NCBI GenBank assembly: GCA_951406725.2 | Contig: OX597815.1 | Location: 45,508,001-45,572,000, forward strand | Reading direction: 5' to 3' | DNA length: 64,000 nt | DNA from: Octopus vulgaris | Lineage: Eukaryota | Part shown: positions 24,142 through 50,302 of the stretch, piece by piece | Layout of the letters: each line of letters begins with the position of its first letter | How positions within the stretch are numbered: position 1 is the first letter of the stretch | The notes under the pieces: model-generated | Told to the model about the DNA's origin: nothing | What the model saw: only the letters and a program-made list of their open reading frames with translations | Databases searched by the model: none | Made by a program: the position numbers and the translations under genes

Positions 24142-25782
24142 TCTCTTATTATAAAAGGCAGATTTTATCTGCCTCCCTTTGTATCTTATAGAAATCTACA
24201 ATATAGGATTTCTTCAATTACAATTTACCTAGCATTTTTAAGAGTAGAATGCATCGGGTCGTGCCAGGTCCAGTTTTTAAAATTTCAACCCCAATTAAGC
24301 AAAATTTAGAGAAAACTCACATTGTGGTGTATAAGTCAAATGCTTTTCTTAGTGCAGCCTACACCACATGCACACGCACAGTGTGCAACGAATAAAGTGA
24401 AAGTAATTCACTTTTTGTACTGAGTGACTCTTTCACTCTGCCACTTCCTCTTTACACACATAGACACGCAAATATATAAATAAAATTGTAAGCTAACGTG
24501 TGTGTGTGTGCGTGTGTGTGTGTGTGTGCGTGTGTGTGAGGGTGCGTATGTGTGTGTGTGTGTGTGCGTGTGCGTGAGTGTGTGACAGGAAAGTTTTTTA
24601 GGACGAATATAAGACCTATATCCAAGTAGCAGAAAGATCGCCCAAAAGTGTATATAGATATTTAAATGTATTTATATATTCATCTATACACAGATGTATG
24701 TATAATGTGTGTGTATATATTTCTATAGAGGTAACCTTTCACTCCATACAAAGTTTTTTAGGACAAAAATAAGATCTAAAGTTATCTCTAAGTAGCACAA
24801 AGATCGCCCAAAAGTGTATATAGATATATAAATGTATTTATATATTCATCTATACACACATGTATGTATAATGTGCGTGTATATATTTCCATAGAGGTAA
24901 CCATTCAATCCATACAAAGTTTTTTAGGACGAAAATATTTATATATAAAAGAAAGGTTGTGTGTCTGTCTACTCCGATTTAGATTCCTAACTACTCCCAC
25001 ATTTTGCGATGCAGTTTAACCAAAACCGGGTATCTTATAGTCGTGATTCATATCGAGCCATTCTGGGTATTAGCGTGTGTCTATGATGAGTCTATGATTT
25101 TACAAATAATTTACCATCATTTTTTTCCATTTTAATGCATATTTTTTTAAATAAAGGGAAGTAACTCTCAAACTTCACACCAATATGCGTGCTCATATGC
25201 GACGTAATATCACATCAGCAGCATTTCCTCACACCCTCCTTGCACTTGGCGAAGGCAAAATACCAGGGGATGAAAATGGTAATATTGCCATCGATTCCAT
25301 TTGTACCATTGTTAAGACGCCTTCTGATCTCAGAGATGCAGTGTTCCCAGATCTACAAGCTAATTATCAGAATATGGATTGGATTGGCAAAAAGGCTATA
25401 CTGGCCCCGAGGAATAAAACTGTTCACCATATTAATGATGAAATGCTAAAACTCATTCCTGGGGAAGTCTATGTATATCAGTCTATCGATACAACTCCTG
25501 ACCCAGAGGACGTCATCAACTATCCAATAGAGGTACTCAATTCCTTTGAGCACCCCGAACTACCACCACACTTTCTCAAACTTAAAGTTGGTGCCCCTAT
25601 AATGCTCATCAGAAATTTGGTTCCCCCAAAACAATGCAATGGCACACGTTTGATCGTTAAGTCCTTATCTCCCACAGTAAGCTTATATCAATATTTGCCT
25701 GAATAATCATCATAATTCAGTGCAATCATTAACAGTACTTTCAAGCAATTCAGCCCTGAGCAACGCTGGGCAATTCTGCTAG
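24142..25782 (+). mobile_element. Composite non-autonomous Helitron with PIF1 helicase fragment
   Basis: A|TC start, internal ~165-bp tandem duplication, a second 5'-end-like segment at ~24940, 3' hairpin ccctgagcaacgctggg and CTAG|T. Confidence 0.85.
25185..25706 (+). pseudogene. Helitron PIF1-type helicase fragment
   Basis: KAILAPRN, YPIEVLNS..PELPPHFLKLKVGAPIMLIRNL..CNGTRLIV are PIF1/Helitron helicase motifs. Confidence 0.9.
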
Positions 25783-38359: not shown

Positions 38360-38521
38360 ATGGATCAAAACAGCTTGATTCAAATTCCGTGGTACTTAAA
38401 GTTCCCACTTTTGATGCTTATCCTCAGTCATTGGAAATCTGAATTTCCAATAGCTGAGGATAAGCGTCACGCTTTGCAACTTTAAGAACTACAGAATTTG
38501 AATCAAACAGTTTTGATCCAT
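38360..38521. repeat. ~160-nt fold-back inverted repeat
   Basis: Outer arms atggatcaaaacagcttgattcaaattc / gaatttgaatcaaacagttttgatccat; inner arms gcttatcctcagtcattggaaat / atttccaatagctgaggataagc. Confidence 0.9.
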
Positions 38522-39172: not shown

Positions 39173-39726
39173 ATCACATATGACACGCCTGTCAATCGGC
39201 TCAACTTTCAGTTTCAAAATGAATTTAAAAAATTACCTTATGCTTCATTTTATTGCCAAATTTAGTTGAGTACTGCTGAATATTATTTTACGTTTTTATT
39301 ATACCGAACTTTGCCGACTTCATTTGTTTCGGTTTCTAAATCACTAAGCGAAGCGTCCTACTCAAGATCCCAGCAGTCCGAGAATCGAACCACGACCCTC
39401 GTGAGCCCAACAACCTAATCACTTGACTATGCGTCTTCAACTGTAAAAGCCTAACCTGACTCGTTTTGCTGTAGTCTTTTATTAGCTCAGTACACCAACA
39501 CCTTTTTTATATTAATTCCTTCAAACAGGCCATATCAGTCCCAAAATATTCTGCTTCTTTAATGCTCAAACCGGTCAGATCAGACCTCTCACTCGTACCT
39601 AACAATATCGGTTTAAAAATAAACAATCACATTATTGAAATCTGAAAGCTACAAGACAATGCGTATTTGATTCAAAACAATATGAACAAGAATACTCAGA
39701 GAGCGCAAACCTCCGCCAAAACAACG

Positions 39727-41807
39727 TTCTATTTTCTTTATTATGAGCACATTGGCTCTACGAAGTAGGGACAATACATGGACAGACAACACAACACAGT
39801 GGGGTACATAAAACATAGAACGAATGAAATTATGAATATAATGATATAATGAAAAATGAAATGCCCCTCACACGCAGGTAGTTTCACTTAACTGTTTATG
39901 TATCACTAGCAGTATCGCCCGGCGTTGCTAGGGTTTGTAAGGGAAATAACTATATAAGCATTTTTAGTGAGTTATAGCAAAAAAATAGCAAAAAATGCAT
40001 TAAAAATGGAATAAAAAATGATGGTAATTTTTTTTAATCGTTGACTCATTGTAGACATTTTTAGAGAGTTACTTCCCTTATATAATAGCGAAAAATGCAT
40101 TAAAATGGAATAAAAAATGATGGTAAATTTTTTTTTAAATCGTAGACTCATCGTAGACGCGCGCTAATACCCAGAAGGGCTCGATATGAATCACGACTAT
40201 AAGATACCCGGTTTTGGTTAAACTGCACCGCAAAATGTGGGAGTAGTTAGGAATCTAAATCGAAGGGGACAGACACTCACACAACTACAGTTTTATATAT
40301 ATAGATATATTAACATTACAGTTCATTCTTTTATTTCATCGTTTTTTGTTTGTTTGTTTTAAACGTCATTATTTTGAAATTTTAAATATTTCACTTACTT
40401 TCATATTACATGTATTATATCCTCAAATGCCACCACTGGTGGCATCTCGTCGTATCGAACCTGTATCGGCAATATATCAATTTTTTCACCAAATAGTTCC
40501 TTTAACCTTTCACATCTCTCTCCTTCACTCTCTCAAACAAGACTGCCCTGTCGTCCTCGGTACATTCCCTCCCTAATAACTTGACTAATTATATTTTTCA
40601 TTTTTGTAATCTTCCTCTCGATCTCTACACTCTTTTTATAGGTTATCATCGTCCGAATGTGTTTTGTTTTTGGTACCAATTCCCGTTTTCCGTCGATATT
40701 CTCTCCTGATGTTCCTGGTATTGGTGTCTCATCCTTCTCTGTATCTCTCTTACTCTTTGTTATTGCTATCTCTCTTCTCTCTTCCTTTCTTTTCTGTACA
40801 GTTCTTTCCTCCTTCGTAATTTTCCTATTTGGTATCTCTGGTCTTTCGCATTGATTCTCCTCAATATTTTCTTTTTTCTTTTTCTGTAGACTTTTGGGTG
40901 GTGAATTAACGTTTTCTTTTTTCTTTTTCCAACTGTATATTTTTCTCCTACATTTTCTATTTTTTCACTTACTTGCATTTGTATCTCCGCTTTTTGTTCC
41001 TCTTCCTGCTTCTCTTGTTCTACTTCCATTTCTTGTTGCTGGGAACACCTTGCTTTCATGCGTCCCCTTACTACACAAAGAAAACATACCGGCGGTCTTC
41101 CTTCCACCATTATCCTCAACCTTAATTCGTCCGGCACCAGCCACGCCTCATCAATTTCTGAGGGCACTCTACCTATTCTTACTCTGGCCGCACGTTTGCC
41201 ACAGTAAGTAGGTAGCAGTGCTCACTCAGCTGATCTCAAAGGCATAGTGGATTGTTTTCTCGCTTCTTCTTCGCTTACGAAGCGTACCTCCACTGTGCCG
41301 TATTTCTTCCCTCTCGTGTAATACGTCGTTATATTCTTTATCACTCGTAGACATTCCTCTGCCGCTTTCTCCGCTGTTACTTCAACTTTTTTTGTTGTCA
41401 CATTCAACGTTCTATAAATAACTATCATTTTTTCATTTTTTTCAAGTATTTCTTTAGGGGGCGTCAACCTCAGACTTTCTCCCTCGATCTCCAGCACACC
41501 GTTGTATTTTTTAAAATTCTTCTTTAATTCGATTGCATGGGCCTGCAGTACCTCTACTGACAGGCGTTTGCCGGTCACCGCAGCGTAACTCCCCGTTGGT
41601 TTACTTTCTATGACAGTATTATTCATAACTTCACCCATAAATGGGGAAGAAAAAGTAAAAGCCAGTTAACAACAACAATTTCAACAATTCCAGTTAATAA
41701 CAGTTCAACAACTGAGTAAATTAACAATACAATACAACAAATTCACGTGGAGCGAAGACACTTCTGACACAGCTCGGAATCAAATGATCCGAAAAACAAC
41801 TCTAATG
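39727..41807 (-). mobile_element. ORF1-only L1/Tx1-like retroelement, copy 1
   Basis: ORFs 41222..41638 and 40766..41167 (VEGRPPVCFLC..RGRMKARC, degenerate CCHC); A-rich 3' end aataaagaaaata; candidate TSD acaacg. Confidence 0.75.
39906..40305 (-). mobile_element. Short non-autonomous Helitron
   Basis: A|TC tatatatataaaactgtagttgtg 5' end; ccctagcaacgccgggcgatactgCTAG|T 3' end; same family as 48817-49720. Confidence 0.9.
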
Positions 41808-42010
41808 ACAACGCCGACGACCTCTCAACGATTAGCCAGGGATGATTTTTAAAATGAGACTATCTGAAATAAACTCGACTGCTCTCACAAACAAGAATAT
41901 TAAAAGTGAACCCGACCGCTCTTAAAAATTAAATTTTTAAAAAAAAGCAGGAAAAATAATCAGAATCCTTGTCCGATACCGATAGATCCCAAAGTCTAAC
42001 CAGTTAGTGC

Positions 42011-42732
42011 GTTTGTGAAAATATCGAGTGTCGTGTACTGCTTTGCAGCGGTTTAGGTGTTTACGTATATTTGTTTGTTCTTTCTCTTCTCGTAAAAGGA
42101 GGGATAGCCTGGTAAAGGACGGCGGGAGAATGTGATACCTTCTCGGACATATCATCGTCCGAAGAGGAGTTGCAAGAGGCAGTCCAGATAATGGACTATA
42201 AACTAAAGATGGAGAACACGAATTTTGCTGAGGCAGCAAGGCGTAAGGAAACTGGATTAAACATTGAAGAACTAGGAAAGCACAAAAACAAAATGAACCG
42301 AGGTGGGTTCAAAGTAAAGCCGACACCCCAACAGGAAATTAAAAAAAACGGAATTAAAGAAAAAAAAACCATTAGCTATCGAACATTTTAGATAAGTAAA
42401 GGAAAAATCGATGTCGTAACAACAGAACAAGTAGAAAAGGCGTTAAGGCCGATTTGGGGCGCCATAGTATACTTAGCAAGAAGTATACTTAACAGGAAGT
42501 TGGTGTTAAAGACAGGGCTCATGGGGTCGAAGCATACCTGTTTCGAACACCTCACCTTGTAAATTATTGTTTGTAATTTGTTGTTTGTATTTTACTGTTT
42601 GTAATTTATTGTGTTGTAACTCATTCGATTTCATTATACTAGTAAAATTTTATTATATCATCCGTTTGTATGTGACCCAGGCCATGTTGTGTTGTCCCCT
42701 CTATGTTGGCCCGCATGGGTAATAAAAAAAAA
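42011..42732 (+). mobile_element. ORF1-only L1/Tx1-like retroelement, copy 2 (internally deleted)
   Basis: MENTNFAEAAR...KGKIDVVTTEQVEKALRPIW is homologous to copy 3; 3' end cctctatgttggcccgcatgggtaataaaaaaaaa. Confidence 0.75.
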
Positions 42733-42772
42733 CAGATGCTAACCTGATGCTAAAAGTCTAACCAGTTCGTGC

Positions 42773-44458
42773 GAGTGCAGTAGTTTTTTTTCTTGGTATT
42801 TTTTGTCTGTTGAGTTGCTTTTGTGGGGTTTTGATTGTTGTGTGATGCTTTGCAGTAATTTGTTCGTGCTTTCTCTCAGCGAGAGTTAGCGATGACTGAC
42901 AAAAGGAATTTGTTTTACTCAGACCTTAGCAGGTCGGAGTTGTCAACATCGGCGGAAGAACTTTTGAGGTCTATTGATGTTATGGACGAGAAATTGGAAG
43001 CAAGAAAGAGGAAGTTCGCGGACGTCGCCCGAGAGTCGGGTGACAATGTGGAGATAGAAATAGGCAAATTCAAGAAATTATTACAACGCGCAAGTACCCC
43101 TCCCTCACGCCGCATGAACCAACAAAAATAATGAAAAGAAGAACGGTGATGTACAAAGCCTACTCGGTTAAGAAAGGCAAAATTGACCACATGACAACAG
43201 AGCAAGTAGAGAAGGTGCTGAGGCCAGTCTGGCAAGAAATAACATACCTTGCCAGAGGGGCGAAATTTGGAGAAGTCGACTCAGGTACAAAAATGAAAAT
43301 ACGGCGATAAAACACGCGGCAACACCTCTAAGGGACGAAGAGTCAGTACTTGTACCCACGTACCTGGGACAGAGAGCGTCTCGGGTAAGGGTGGAAGGAA
43401 TCCCACCAGAGATAGATGTGGCCTGGAGAGCGGCTGCTGTCTTGGCTGAAACCGAGGACAAAATAGCGGTGCTCCAGGCCACGAAAATGAAAATGAAAAT
43501 GAAAAGCGTGAATTGGAAAAGCCAAGTTTTGAATATGATCATTCAAGGTTCAAATGAGGCAATAGAAGAAATGGTGGAAACGGTGACTGTAAACGATACC
43601 ATAATGAATGTAAGGGTGGAGGGCAGAATACCTCACAGTTTCAAATGTGGCCAGAAGGGCCACATAAGAGCGAAGTGCCCTCCACCGGATAAAAGAATAG
43701 AGAAAATACTGGAGAAGGGCCGTAAGGAGAAGACACACGAGAGGCCCTAGGAAGGACAAGAGGAGGAAGAAATGGTTCCAGAAAAAGAGGAAGAATGGGG
43801 AAAGGCGGGAAAAAGAAAGAATAGGAAGAGGAAAAAAACAAGGCCCATATACACGGAACTTCACCCAACAACTACCCAAGGCTCACCCATACCCTCTTTC
43901 TCCCACCCTCGCTCTGCAGACACTGAGCCTTCTCATTCCCCTCCATCACAAAAACAAAAGAAAAAATCGCATTCACACAACGACTCACAAATATCCCCTC
44001 CCTGTTTTGCGTGTATAATATATGATGAGGACCTGTTTGATAAGGCAATTGAATGGGAGAATACAGTACATATTGATGTAGAGGATGAGGACGGAGTGGA
44101 CGGTGTGGTACTATTATTAACAGAACAGCAAAGGATGGAAATAGAGAGGCACAACGGGGAGTATGAACTGTGGAAAAGCTTTGACAAGGAAAAACTTGAC
44201 TTTGACAAAGAAAAGCTTCCACAGAGTATTAAATTTAATGAAATGAAAAAGAGGTATAACTTAAATATAATGGAGAACAGGAGAAAGGAGGCAAGTGATG
44301 TTACTTGATGGAGCAGGTAACACCATTTTCATTTTTTTCATTTTTTCATCTTTCATTATATCATACGTTTCATTTTTATTTTATTTTTTGTAATTGTTGC
44401 ATGTCCCCAATGTAATGCATGACCCTCTATGTTGGTCCTTTATGGGTAATAAAAAAAA
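42773..44458 (+). mobile_element. ORF1-only L1/Tx1-like retroelement, copy 3
   Basis: One disrupted ORF 42892-44308 with zinc-knuckle remnant (VEGRIPHSFKCGQKGHIRAKCP), no RT or endonuclease; 3' end cctctatgttggtcctttatgggtaataaaaaaaa. Confidence 0.8.
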
Positions 44459-45019
44459 CAGATCCCAAAATCCAATCACTTCGTGCCTGTCACGAGGCCA
44501 AACATCCCTGTAAGTTTCATTCGAATCCATCCAGTAGTTCTTGAGATATCTTGTCCACGGACAAATAAACACGACTAAAAACAATACCTCCGCTTTCGCT
44601 AAGGCGGAGATAATAAATAAGCATTATATTTAACAGTTATCTGAACGCTAAAGATAATCAGTATAAAATTACCATCATAGTTCCCACTTTTATTCACAAT
44701 GTTTTACCCTAATTCCACTAATGTAATGTCTCTTTTATGAACTCTTATTTACTCTACAAACTTCTTTATATGAAAATGTCAGATAACCTCTATTTTAACT
44801 CCACTCACCTTCCAAATTTATGCAATGGCATTCATTTTTCTGGTTCTTTTACGCTTTTATTAATCAACGATATCTTCAGAATAGAAAAAACGTAAGCATC
44901 TGTTACATCTAATTGAATAATGCATTGAAATTTTAAATTCATTGCCAGGAATTATTTGAATAAGTTAAGTCGTACAGAAGAGTAAATTCTCATAATTTGA
45001 CAAAACATGTTTTACGTAC

Positions 45020-45210
45020 CGGCAAAATAGTTAGCACGTGAGGTCAAATACTTAGCGGCATTGTGCCTGTCTCTACGTTCTGAGTTCAAATTCCACCGAG
45101 GTCGACATTGCCTTTCATCCTTTCGGGGTCAATAAAATAAGTACCAGTTGAGCAATGTAATCAATTTATCCCCTTCCCCGAAATTACTGGCTTTGTACCA
45201 AAATTTGAAG
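45020..45210 (+). mobile_element. SINE family B
   Basis: gagttcaaattccaccgaggtcgacattgcctttcatcctttcggggtcaataaaataagtaccag. Confidence 0.85.
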
Positions 45211-46398
45211 TCAATTCTCGCAGATTTGCTTGGTAATTCATTCTTTCCTGTGTCATCGTACCCCTCAAGAAGCTTGCGTTGGGATTTAGTTTTCGAAAAG
45301 ATTTCTCTGTGATGTACAGAATATTCGCTGTGCAATAACATAAATCTGGGAAAAGTTTGATATACATTTTGGGGTACTACAAAATTATGAAAGAGAAACA
45401 CGAACCCCGAAGGCAGAGAGCCCAAACAAGTACCAAGTCCTACACTCTAACGAACCCTATCAATTCGCAGTCTTATTTTAAATATTGGTAATAAAGGCAC
45501 TACGTGCGATTATATTGGAATCCCACTTAATTGGTAACATTCAATTAAAGTCACCATTACACAGCACTACACTCACGAGCACGCAGATGTTGGCGAAAGA
45601 TGGAGATTCTATCAGACGCGAAAGCGCAGACGCTCCAGTCTGAACAGATGCAGCTCGGAACTAAGCACAACAGTTAAGCAATAGTAAATCATGAGATGAT
45701 GTGAGCGTTCTCCGCCTCCTCTTGACCATTCAGGGATAGCATTCTCTCAGCCCATATTCGGATGAGTCTGAGTAGTCAGTCTTGACTGGACCCTCGTGCC
45801 AGCAACAGACGTTGGTTAACCTAAACCTTGAATTTCCTGGTGTCTAGTTGCAAGCCTACTGGTTTTTCCTCGTTAATGCGTGCTCCTGTTACCAGTGTAT
45901 TCTTTCAATATGATGCCAGTTTCTGAGATGTTTTACACAGCGGTGACGTCTTCCGTGTATATAAGACTAAGGGCTCTTATATCCTTATTGGAGCACAGTG
46001 CTCCTTAATATAGCATTGTAATGAGTCATGAACCAGAGCACACATAGGTAATGGGAGGAGACATTCTTTAACGCTTGACAGACCGAGCGTGTAATTTGGA
46101 ACGGTTCCTATCGGTGGTCATTTAGTCTTACCCTCGAGCAGAAGCCATTATACACAGAAGAGAAAACGGAACAGAAAAATAGCTGCAAATAAGAAAGTAG
46201 CTTGATAACAATGGATAATCCTATCGGACGCTTTAAACGGGTCAAAATTTATTAAAGCACCACTGGAACTAGATCAAAGTCGTTTTCGCGGTGATCTTTA
46301 AGTCTTTTCGTATACCAGAAAGTAAATTATCTAATCTCCCTCATATTATACTTTACCAACTGGAATATTATTTGTTTACAGTCATACAATATTAAAAT

Positions 46399-46918
46399 AA
46401 TAATAAATCTCTGAACGAGATGGATGACCTCTCTTTGCAAATACCATAAGAGCACAGAGAGTGTGACTAAAGCCAGCTGGAGACGATGATCTCCTAGGGC
46501 TAAAAGCTACAGTAACACCCACCCTTAGTGGTTAGCCATATTGAGATGGCTATTATACTTTACGTTGTCGAGCAGTTACTGTTTACATCTCGTTCAGAGA
46601 TTTATTATTGCTTGCAGACAGTTTTTCGAAATTAGTGACGGAAGTTACTAGAAAAACAATAAGTATTTGCAAACATGTCTCCCTTCATCGTAAACCGGTG
46701 ATTGCCGTACGCCGAAGACAGGCAAATACCTAGAAACTGCAGTCCGTGCGTATCACTTACGTTTACGAGAGAGGGATGACCTCCCTTTGCAAATACCATA
46801 AGTGCACAGAAAGTGTGCCTAAAGCCAGCTGGAGACGATGATCTCCTGGGGCTACAACCTACAGTAACACCCACCCTTAGTGGTTAGCCATATTGAGATG
46901 GCTAGTATACTTTACGTT
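46399..46918. repeat. 145-bp direct duplication, first copy bracketed by perfect 24-bp inverted repeats
   Basis: Copies at 46422-46566 and 46774-46918; IR aataataaatctctgaacgagatg at 46399-46422 and 46586-46609. Confidence 0.9.
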
Positions 46919-47154
46919 AATATTAAAATAGATCCGAAGCTTAACAATTTACAACAATACTCACTTGTTGCAGTGCTACCCTCATCCAAAACTTCTTCAC
47001 CAGCTGGACCATATAAGCGGGGATTAGCATGAAATATTCATTCTTGCCGTTTCATCTATCTTTCTAAAGGAATCACACTCCACTGTTTCGTTTTGTTTGG
47101 TACGAGTGACGAAACCGCACGTTCCTGCAAAGGGTCTTTAAGTACTTCCCTTTC

Positions 47155-47312
47155 TACGAGGGGGCGCTGAAAAGATCTTAGATTTAAGGGTATCGCGAAA
47201 GGCCTGGTTGGAAGCCCAACCTTCCGAGTTCTTTTACAGGGCTTAGAAAAACTAATGGAATCTGAGAGGGGAATATGTTGGAGAAGATCATAAATAACTG
47301 ATCCTCCTGTAT
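47155..47312. mobile_element. Partial mariner-type MITE
   Basis: tacgagggggcgctgaaaag terminus; body is the reverse complement of 2968-3160. Confidence 0.7.
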
Positions 47313-48279
47313 TTTCTAACCATTTCGTCCGGCGTGCTAATGATTCTGCCAACTCGCCGCCCTATTAGAAAGCTACTGCTGCTGATGCTTTTACTGATAG
47401 TAGATGTTTACTATATTGGTGTATCTCAGGCAACAATAGTTGTGGTCTAGTTCAGAGAGACAACAGAGTAACACCGTTTGTTAGAGAGGTTGGGAAAGTG
47501 AAAAGGGAAAGTAAAGTGTAGTGCCGGAAAGAAATAGGGGACGTAAGCTAAGATAAGTTAGTACGGGTATGAGTTAAGGCACTTGCAAACGTGATAGGAG
47601 GGGATGACAGGAGGAATGAACAGGTAGAAGAAAGTGACAATTGAGAAATGGATCTAGTTAGATTTTCAGATTTTCAGATTTTTTTACTTCCTTTTAAAAA
47701 ATCCAGATTTGGTGAATCAGTTTAACTAGATCCTGAGAAATTAGCAATTAGTGATGGAGAAACGAAAAGCTAAAAATGATATAAAAGACGACAAAATGCT
47801 GAGAAGCTGAGGTAATGTGAAAAGTTGAGGTTTTAATAGATTACATGAACTGTGGGGAGACCCTTGGATATCCTCATTTAAAACTCCAGAAAGGTTTTTT
47901 TTTTTCCAAGTAATTATTTTTAAAGTGTCAGCTGAAACTAATTTGATGGAAACGGTGGAGTATTAGCGTTGCTACGGGTGTTCGCGGCAATAGCTACGCG
48001 CAAGCAGTCACTCGTCTTTCAACGTTGACGATGGAGGAGTTAATATTATTCGTGGTAGCGTGATGTGATGTTGCCTTCACTACTGTCAGCAGTTTTGCTG
48101 TTGTTGCTAGTGACACTAAAGTGGTGGAAGTAGGCTGGCAGTAATCGTGTTGTTACTCGCGCTTCTCACCACCATCTCTTTTTCACTTCTCCGTTTTCAG
48201 TTGCTACCACAATGAGCGCCAATGTTTGTAAATTTAAAAAGGAAAATTTTTCCTAGAGGAAATGAAAAAGTGAACTGAC

Positions 48280-48363: not shown

Positions 48364-48816
48364 GCTCTGCATCTGAGGTCTGTTGAATAATACAATGATT
48401 GATAATAGAAAATACAAGATCTTCAATCAAGTAAAATCAGTAGTAATTCAAGAAAATTTCCTCCAGAAATTAAAAGACATGGTACACTGATAAAGCACAA
48501 TAGTTATAATAATTTACAGCAGTCTAGATTTACAGATATATTACAACAGAAAGTTTTAAATTCAAAGACTAATTAGTAATGAATCTTTAAAATTGTAAGT
48601 ATCAAATAACATATACTATTTGATACTTAGAATTGTTTATGATATCTGTGTTATGATATCCTAGTTTTGGCTAATGGAATATTTTTATATAGTTATCTAG
48701 AGTGATAAAACAAACAACGATTTTTGGTATGTATAGTGTCAAGTATGTATCAAGCATGTATTTTGGTACGCATATTATTGAATGAGTTTCTTTCAATGCT
48801 ATCAAGTCAAGCTATA

Positions 48817-49322
48817 TCTATATATATAAAACTGTAGTTGTGTGAGTGTCTGTCCCCTTCGATTTAGATTCCTAACTCCTCCCACATTTTGCGGTGCAGT
48901 TTAACCAAATTCGGGTATCTTATAGTCGTGATTCATATCGAGCCCGTCTGACTATTAGCGCGCGTCAACGATGAGTCTACGATTTTAAAAATAATTTAAC
49001 ATCATTTTTTATTCCATTTTAATGCATAAAATGCATCGTATGTCGATGGCGGCGGAGCTGGCGTCCACGCTCACAGCTGCACCTGTTTGCTTCTCCCCCT
49101 TCCCTCCCTCGTGAAGCTGTGGGGAAGGGAGTGTAAAGAAATCAACGTCGTAATGCGTTGTGAAGGAAACCAGCGTTCTTTTAGAATAACGACTTCATGG
49201 CTTGAAGACACCAAAACAAAAATGGCTAAGAAAGCCCGAATTTATAAGGGAAGTAACTCTCTAAAAATGCTTATATAGTTATTTCCCTTACAAACCCGAG
49301 CAACGCCGGGCGATACTGCTAG
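48817..49322 (+). mobile_element. Non-autonomous Helitron with extra internal segment
   Basis: A|TC start; cccgagcaacgccgggcgatactgCTAG end; GC-richer segment ~49030-49245 is absent from sister copies. Confidence 0.9.
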
Positions 49323-49720
49323 TCTTTATATATAAAAGTGAAGTTGTGTGAGTGTCTTTCTCCTACGATTTAGATTCTTAACTACTCCCACATTTTGCGG
49401 TGCAGTTTAACCAAAAGCAGGTATCGTATAGTCGTGATTAATATCGAGCCCTTCTGGGTATTAGCACGCGTCTACGATGAGTCTACGATTTTAAAGATAA
49501 TTTACCATTTTTTTCCATTTTAATGCATTTTTTCGCTTTTATATAAGGGAAGTAACTCTCTAAAAATGTCTACGATGAGTCAACGATTTAAAAAAAAATT
49601 TACCATAATTTTTTTTCCATTTTTGATGCATTTTTTGCTGTTTTTTGGCTATTACTCTCTAAAAATGCTTATATAGTTATTTCCCTTAAAAACCCGAGCA
49701 ACGCCGGGCGATACTGCTAG
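49323..49720 (+). mobile_element. Non-autonomous Helitron joined head-to-tail to the previous one
   Basis: TC start immediately after CTAG; same 3' hairpin and CTAG|T. Confidence 0.9.
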
Positions 49721-50302
49721 TTATTAATATTTTCCGAGATGACATATTTTGCTTTTACGAGATATTCGTGATACCACGAAAATAACTGCCAAAAGTATTA
49801 CGAGGCAGTTATGTAATACATGGTAGGCAGTTAAAAAACAATCATCTATTTTTGGGTGACTAGAAGCTGTTTGCAGAGTATATTATACTAATACACTTCG
49901 AATTTGGGATTAAAAACGCATGAAATTTTGATAATGAATCAATGGAAAATTTCCACAAGAAAATTTATTGGAAAGAAAATCTTGAAACAAATTGCTATAG
50001 TAGTTTATAAGTACTTAGATACGATAAAATTACATGGGAATATTTGAAAAAAATTGAAACTACTACGTAATCAAAGTTAAAGAAGAAAGAAGATAAGTTA
50101 TAAAACACTTAATCACATCTCTTTCCCCCTATAATGGAAAAATCCTCATATGGAACTAGAGGGGTTGGATTGAGATAGTGCGATATGAAAATGCAAAAAT
50201 AGCATCAATATGAAAATAGAGATGGCCCTGTGCCTATACAAGAAATCAAATGAAAGGATTAATTATTTTATTTTTTAATAGTTATTTCTAATATATATTT
50301 AA

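Follow-up and report, generated by a model that had tools for sequence, protein, structure and literature searches.

A stretch of 64,000 nucleotides (nt) from the genome of Octopus vulgaris (assembly GCA_951406725.2, contig OX597815.1, positions 45,508,001 to 45,572,000; here called the window, in whose own coordinates all positions are given) raises the question of whether a family of retroposons is aimed at a rolling-circle transposon. A sequence-only reading of the window had noticed three imperfect copies of one motif of about 27 bp around two poly(A)-tailed elements that carry only a first open reading frame (ORF1), and had proposed that Tx1/L1-like retroposons repeatedly hit this site inside a Helentron-type element. 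We find three related poly(A)-tailed ORF1-only retroposons (A, B and C) nested inside one non-autonomous Helentron (HINE) of ~0.4 kb, with two of them at the same spot. The retroposon family likely prefers the HINE as its landing site, although this is not proven.

Three retroposons inside one Helentron

The composite element is made up of the following parts, from left to right.

39685 to 39731, minus strand: outer piece of the host HINE, with one terminus and the subterminal repeat CTCCGCC (39711-39717)
39718 to 39731, minus strand: putative target-site duplication of element C, the one adjoining its poly(A), which agrees with 41793-41804 in 12 of 14 columns, including a 2-nt gap
39732 to 41792, minus strand: element C, ORF1-only, with an interrupted A-rich tail (39732-39745) and a broken ORF1 (about 41641-40398)
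41793 to 41993, minus strand: middle piece of the host HINE, including the second copy of the C duplication (41793-41804) and the first 10 nt of motif copy L
41984 to 42011, plus strand: motif copy L; 41984-41993 is identical to 44460-44469, and 41994-42011 matches motif copy M at 17 of 18 positions
41994 to 42733, plus strand: element A, with a 5' untranslated region (UTR), an N-terminal part of ORF1 (stop at 42389-42391), an internal deletion of ~1 kb relative to B, a 3' UTR and an A9-C tail
42734 to 42773, plus strand: A-B junction with motif copy M (42746-42773), which is preceded by a short duplicated stretch (42734-42745)
42756 to 44459, plus strand: element B, with a 5' UTR, ORF1 (42892-44308), a 150-nt 3' UTR and an A8-C tail
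44460 to 44616, minus strand: last piece of the host HINE, with motif copy R (44460-44487), a terminal hairpin (44588-44609) that holds GGCGGAG (44603-44609), and the terminus at 44616

Evidence from beyond the window came from public sequencing runs aligned to 41650-44750, which gave contigs from organism A (set X1) and organism B (set X4); statements on individual contigs refer to those listed (for loose ends 18 rows out of 1,020, for joints 15 out of 54 and for pieces 16 out of 16,628). Two runs of raw reads of 1.9 Gb each (X14 and X15) yielded partial reads of low complexity, 44 and 5 in number, which are no evidence either way.

The host had been recognised as a Helentron-type element, and its subterminal inverted repeats, terminal hairpin and sharp end bear this out. 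Its extent had been misjudged, however, as the true left end lies at ~39685, 2 kb to the left of where it was assumed, and the outer piece had been missed. This end was located because the consensus of the loose ends that precede 41821 in 113 X1 and 130 X4 contigs recurs at 39701-39721 (19 of 21 positions), and similar ends occur in two metagenome loci (L001 and L002). At the opposite terminus the loose ends pile up sharply behind 44616 (172 X1 and 173 X4 contigs). The host therefore spans 39685-44616, and without its inserts and duplications it is a non-coding, interspersed element of ~383 nt. Contig depth in X1 reaches 140,000-743,000 over 41754-41961 and 44458-44665 (247,275-639,063 for the middle piece and up to 743,203 for the last piece) versus 53-68 for pieces identical to this locus; contig depth does not equal copy number, and we take these values only as thousands of copies.

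The terminal hairpin at 44588-44609 has a 9-bp stem (z -3.54, with 1 of 200 shuffles as good), and no hairpin was found at the other host end (z -0.35). The subterminal inverted core pairs CTCCGCC at 39711-39717 with GGCGGAG at 44603-44609 and extends to 8 of 11 positions over a wider span. With regard to the insertion of HINEs into TT without duplication, runs of A occur on the plus strand at both ends, and no empty flank site was seen. A non-coding nature, high copy number, a subterminal inverted repeat and a terminal hairpin are shared with the HINE and DINE-1 non-autonomous Helentrons (PMC4067079, in excerpt), while the inverted repeats of mite HINEs measure 12-15 nt in the same excerpt and the perfect inverted core of the octopus host only 7 nt.

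Empty HINEs that already carry the motif several times would have spoken against repeated hits at this site. Empty copies carry it once only, both in the X1 and X4 contigs and in 3 of 3 metagenome loci. Specifically, contigs join 41981/41982 to 44461 in both sets, and upstream HINE sequence stands directly before 44461 in 97 X1 and 76 X4 contigs. The three metagenome loci represent two distinct HINE-like elements of another animal, each locus with one motif block. The block is nearly identical at L001:1424-1447, L002:573-595 and L003:793-815, though the rest of those elements aligns loosely. Because the block is also present in HINE-like elements of another animal, it is an old conserved part of this element type.

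Of the retroposons, A and B had been described before and C had been overlooked. Element A is ~740 nt long, internally deleted and without the zinc knuckle, and the ORF1 frames of A and B are both broken. In B this involves frameshifts near 43100-43280 and a stop at 43748-43750, which is specific to this copy since other copies read C at 43748 (4 X1 and 6 X4 contigs). The two frames are homologous and diverged, as had been claimed (51% amino acid identity over 53 residues), and the elements start with homologous 5' UTRs directly after the motif and both end in GGGTAAT-A8/9-C. Their 3' ends, reported to be near-identical, deserve that word over the last ~40 nt (88% over 42 nt) but not over the last ~90 columns, where 69 of 88 agree. 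Element C is 49% identical to B in protein over 49 residues and matches the family profile with E values of 3e-27 (core) and 5e-34 (C-terminal domain); its frame ends ~260 nt before the tail, as compared with ~150 nt for B. All matches to the family profile at E<1e-8 in the window lie inside this one host, element A likewise. The absence of a reverse transcriptase (RT) also holds, as the longest frame in 38-50 kb is 187 residues, which leaves no room for an RT. RNA folding of the 3' tails is unremarkable (z 0.19, 0.24 and 0.49), and searches of viral and metagenome contigs with tail patterns gave 0 loci. Copies A, B and C here are all dead.

The head-to-tail layout and similar tails of A and B could suggest a single local tandem duplication followed by decay. 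We reject this explanation, to which we give next to no credence, on the divergence of the two elements: their 5' parts share 265 of 514 aligned nucleotides (52%), with the 51% protein identity given above, and each has closer relatives elsewhere among the contigs. The same holds for a local duplication of A, B and C, which are only 49-51% alike in protein where they overlap. At least 90% identity to the window is seen in 6,486 of the 9,491 X1 contigs that match it, mostly host pieces as judged by depth, and the divergence between A and B far exceeds that of most X1 contigs, which places the split of A and B earlier than the spread of the host family. In organism B the orthologous locus seems to exist, with X4 contig pieces that are 97-98% alike.

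The motif copies and the choice of site

The three motif copies are present where they had been reported (starting at 41984, 42746 and 44460). In ungapped alignment with copy L (41984-42010), R matches at 22 of 27 and M at 20 of 27 positions, and among all further sites in the window, with both strands read, the highest value is 18 of 27. Local alignment scores against L are 18 for M and 17 for R, and 300 shuffles of 42011-44500 never gave more than 13. Motif patterns gave 0 matches in viral and prokaryote genome contigs. A known small-RNA gene can be ruled out as the target, since no Rfam match in 36-52 kb came near a gathering score.

The sequence-only reading considered L and M to be closer to each other than to R and suggested that the element's own 5' end may mimic the target. 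Closeness of L and M is real for the last 18 nt (L-M 17 of 18, L-R 12 of 18, M-R 13 of 18) but is reversed in the first 10 nt, where L equals R and M differs, so that a perfect 10-nt direct repeat (41984-41993 and 44460-44469) flanks A and B together. Three letters common to L and M are not found in the ancestral motif, as represented by L001 and the host contigs, and R deviates from it at two other places. These shared letters favor the mimic idea, in which an element-borne 18-nt 5' end together with a 10-nt duplication would explain them directly. Long target duplications laid down in sequence explain them nearly as well: if B inserted first, its 5' duplication drifted and A then inserted into it, three changes per 18 nt would be needed (P 0.06 at 5% divergence and 0.27 at 10%). 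Both readings need a site preference. A joint between 42008 and 44497, a HINE variant that fits L, was left out of account on this question, because L and R are at almost equal distances from the consensus motif.

The same pattern bears on a quite unlikely alternative, in which A and B came in together on a single transcript that had read through an older tandem array at another place, so that the 10-nt repeat would be the duplication of a single event and M an older junction. Targeting would still be implied, with one hit at this site. The identity of L and R over the 10 nt at which M is altered fits this explanation. However, the A-B junction with M is spanned by an identical X1 contig at single-locus depth (57), and no second A-B junction occurs among the rows listed.

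Contigs from other loci agree with insertion at the same HINE position. Among the rows listed, an X1 contig of depth 97 continues from an A-like tail into the sequence that starts at 44452, both sides measuring no less than 40 letters, and an X4 row of depth 146 joins another tail variant to 44450 onward. A paralogue of A, 84% alike and present in both X1 and X4, begins to match at 41971, which is 13 nt upstream of the motif and in HINE sequence. Target specificity has been defined as >20% of flanks in one repeat (PMC4494074, in excerpt). The counts at hand, with 3 of 3 copies in the window and three other contig junctions in or at the HINE, cover only the window and the contig rows listed.

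It could also be argued that there is little or no target preference, that this HINE copy is a local trap, and that the same-site contigs are HINE-plus-insert composites spread by rolling-circle hitchhiking. The flanks are indeed known from the window and the listed contig rows and not as a genome-wide count, a fourth nested element (the Helitron described below) shows that the region does collect insertions, and C sits at another site. On the other hand A and B, which are only half alike in protein, share both the register in which they start after the motif and the letter at which they stop before it, the paralogue of A is more distant than most X1 contigs, and the same-site contigs differ in their tail variants. 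On this balance we regard the explanation as unlikely.

Capture of the A, B and C sequences by a Helentron during rolling-circle transposition, without retrotransposition into the host, is in our judgment very improbable. Helentrons do carry gene fragments (PMC4067079, in excerpt), and one protein model (P0055, 1135 residues) has a B-like ORF1 piece between Helitron_like_N (Rep) and PIF1 helicase parts. Every insert at this locus, however, has an A-rich tail and flanking direct repeats, and the depth of the composite is 1,000-fold below that of the host. P0055 may stem from an autonomous Helitron into which a member of the family went, which we take as a hint only.

Several observations weigh against a preference for the HINE served by Tx1-type machinery. 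The C site has no visible likeness to the site of A and B, its duplication is imperfect (12-14 nt), and the M junction is irregular, with its short duplication and with first 10 nt unlike those of L and R. The HINE context of the A paralogue is putative: it has 455 letters further upstream of its 13 nt of HINE match, and with 41921-41948 masked the match may stop either through the mask or through an end of the likeness. The listed loose ends, joints and pieces are so small a share of the totals given above that most tails could have other flanks, and X1 depth at the B tail is ~4,700, which corresponds to tens of copies, with the flank seen for very few. Family pieces are also found in gene models with SNF2 and RGS domains (P0095 and P0068), which may or may not lie in a HINE. 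Type I ORF1 proteins, the kind described below, are not confined to Tx1, as PMC5203782 (in excerpt) reports them from plant L1 and, citing others, from Jockey-group elements. Finally, no ORF2 partner was found, either as an RT frame in 38-50 kb or in the 79 proteins scanned.

The ORF1 protein and its class

A protein search against 1.84 billion representatives gave 258 matches at E<=0.001, of which 150 were listed; fragments are frequent among them, and unrelated proteins with several knuckles (e.g. P0003, P0004 and P0046) were set aside. The best relative of the B protein, a CCHC protein from Octopus bimaculoides, shares 74% identity across 37% of the query, and the identity of B to P0001 is given as 74%. 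Of 21 relatives looked up, the 13 with a name comprise 12 from Octopus and one from Argonauta. Five members (P0009, P0006, P0008, P0012 and P0022) are annotated as host genes in Octopus assemblies, one of them as 'EPM2A-interacting 1-like'. No relative of the B protein was seen among 368 pattern matches in viral contigs.

The RNA-binding ORF1 protein is predicted to combine a pair of RRMs and a single CCHC knuckle with an additional domain of ferredoxin-like fold. A model of the full-length relative P0040 (59-row alignment, mean pLDDT 80) shows two RRM-fold domains, the knuckle, a disordered linker and a folded C-terminal domain. The best Foldseek matches of this model are tandem-RRM proteins (E 1e-4), with a VIA Z of 6-8 per domain, and zf-CCHC is matched by B at E 0.004 and by P0001 at E 5e-5. 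Atlas neighbours include ZCCHC3-type RRM clusters at 0.89, which serve as a lead only. The C-terminal domain gave only matches to the common ferredoxin-like fold (best Z 6.1, root-mean-square deviation 3.4, 69 residues aligned), none of them specific enough to point to a function. No L1 ORF1p structure is among the fold matches listed, which excludes nothing, and a sequence search of the PDB gave zinc-knuckle and low-complexity matches only. The C-terminal domain of B aligns poorly with the C-type consensus. P0001 combines a B-like core (74%) with a C-like C-terminal domain, which suggests module swapping between families.

No RT or endonuclease family was detected in 79 scanned of 153 fetched proteins (best five families only for four unrelated multi-knuckle proteins); this is a weak negative because ORF1 and ORF2 are usually separate frames. 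Longer fused forms (1092-3115 residues) were not seen among 7,990 candidates, which is again weak evidence.

The Tx1/L1 label can be drawn only from this predicted ORF1 architecture. The combination of RRM and CCHC knuckle is that of a type I ORF1, which is linked with Tx1 in non-mammalian animals (PMC5203782, in excerpt). General features of non-LTR retroposons are also present, namely tails of A9 and A8 and an interrupted A-tract, the perfect 10-nt repeat around A and B, and the 12 of 14 repeat around C. An ORF2 with endonuclease and RT is absent, as only 150 nt separate the end of ORF1 in B from the poly(A) and the region has no frame above 187 residues. The copies are thus not autonomous Tx1 elements, and a Tx1 origin is possible. 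They cannot be filed as Tx1 because they have no RT, nor as HAL1 because their ORF1 is of another type.

HAL1 (half-L1), a derivative of mammalian L1, likewise consists of a 5' UTR, ORF1 as its sole frame and a poly(A) tail (PMC5753468, in excerpt), as do B and C. By the definition in PMC5203782 (in excerpt), a mammalian-type L1 origin would entail a type II ORF1, whereas two RRMs and a CCHC knuckle are type I. Mammalian L1 ORF1 is of the coiled-coil/Transposase_22 type, unlike the octopus ORF1 with its extra domain. We know of no sequence-specific target of HAL1. The HeT-A element of Drosophila is a gag-only non-LTR element of the Jockey group that goes to chromosome ends, forms head-to-tail arrays and uses a borrowed RT; the gag-only make-up, the arrays and the borrowed RT are a likeness by description to the octopus elements.

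The closest parallels in targeting come from vertebrates (PMC4494074, in excerpt). SINEU-3 and Tx1-Mar of crocodilians insert into the DNA transposon Mariner-N4_AMi, with 313 of 347 SINEU-3 copies in the target. In common with the octopus locus, a non-autonomous retroposon sits in an abundant non-autonomous DNA transposon, tandem copies sandwich the target duplication, and Tx1-type machinery is proposed. SINEU-3 is derived from a small nuclear RNA and non-coding, whereas the octopus elements carry ORF1, their host is a rolling-circle HINE in a mollusc, and their fraction in the target comes from few flanks. Tx1 of Xenopus likewise has a fixed site inside another transposon (Tx1D, a non-autonomous piggyBac family), but it is autonomous with an ORF2 endonuclease and RT, neither of which the octopus copies have.

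A proposed mechanism, its setting and its meaning

The nested arrangement, empty HINEs with one motif each, elements built around ORF1 alone, their tails and the flanking repeats are all observed directly. To account for them, we consider it probable that A, B and C were pasted one after another into the HINE by the borrowed endonuclease and RT of a long interspersed element (LINE), probably of the Tx1 kind, that prefers the HINE. By established LINE biology, an autonomous LINE would recognise the conserved 3' tail. Its endonuclease would nick the conserved HINE block at 41984/44460 and prime reverse transcription there. Each insertion would leave the block on both sides, either as a target duplication of ~28 nt or as a 10-nt duplication plus an element-borne, target-like 5' end of 18 nt. 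The target site would thereby be renewed by every insertion, so that a second element could land head-to-tail. Element A would have been reduced by its internal deletion later or already beforehand, and C may represent a sister family that used a second site, just inside one HINE terminus and in opposite orientation. A Tx1 partner is our best guess, since O. vulgaris is rich in L1-Tx1 elements, some of them active (80 families, of which 13 were active recently; PMC13282606, in excerpt), and Tx1 families are known transposon-targeters (PMC4494074, in excerpt).

Other repeats occur in and around the composite. One is nested in the 3' region of C:

39906 to 40305, minus strand: unrelated non-autonomous Helitron that starts with TC, ends with a hairpin and CTAG, and lies between A and T

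Further copies of this canonical family, 86-95% alike, lie at 24932-25172 and 48813-49730, with those at 48.8-49.7 kb in tandem or nested and with an internal repeat of ~98 nt. Three old interspersed repeat families of about the size of short interspersed elements are represented at 45021-45215, 47153-47320 and 39520-39689, each with several copies across the window that are 66-81% alike; the last of these adjoins the host HINE end at 39685. An imperfect 162-nt palindrome at 38360-38521 (80% self-complementary) is possibly the remnant of a miniature inverted-repeat transposable element. A 150-nt direct repeat (46417-46566 and 46769-46918, 94% alike, 352 nt apart) stands beside a 24-nt inverted repeat (46399-46422 and 46586-46609).

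A wider scenario, which we hold to be unlikely, is an octopod radiation of ORF1-only retroposons specialised on Helentrons. Each family would carry a copy of its HINE target at its own 5' end, so that insertions rebuild the site and self-targeting arrays grow. The ORF1 with its extra ferredoxin-like domain would be retained for guiding a borrowed RT to the target, in the way that HeT-A Gag works at fly telomeres, and the endonuclease would aim at a functionally fixed part of the rolling-circle element.

In the open literature (including PMC10294476, in excerpt) we found no Helentron-targeting or ORF1-only element of octopus, although Repbase, the O. vulgaris consensus library or subscription journals may have an entry. 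The targeting of transposons by retroposons is already known, with sequence-specific LINEs that parasitise transposons described from frogs and crocodilians, and the novelty lies in the ORF1-only form and the Helentron target. If most copies have random flanks, a so far undescribed HAL1-like family of modest interest remains. If the preference is true, the known transposon-targeting LINEs would be joined by an ORF1-only kind whose target is a rolling-circle transposon of a mollusc, new in host class as well as in element type, and a large family of octopus proteins that are filed as 'uncharacterized' or 'CCHC-type' host genes would get a name. The partner endonuclease would then be a new natural site-specific insertion enzyme with a conserved target of ~28 nt.

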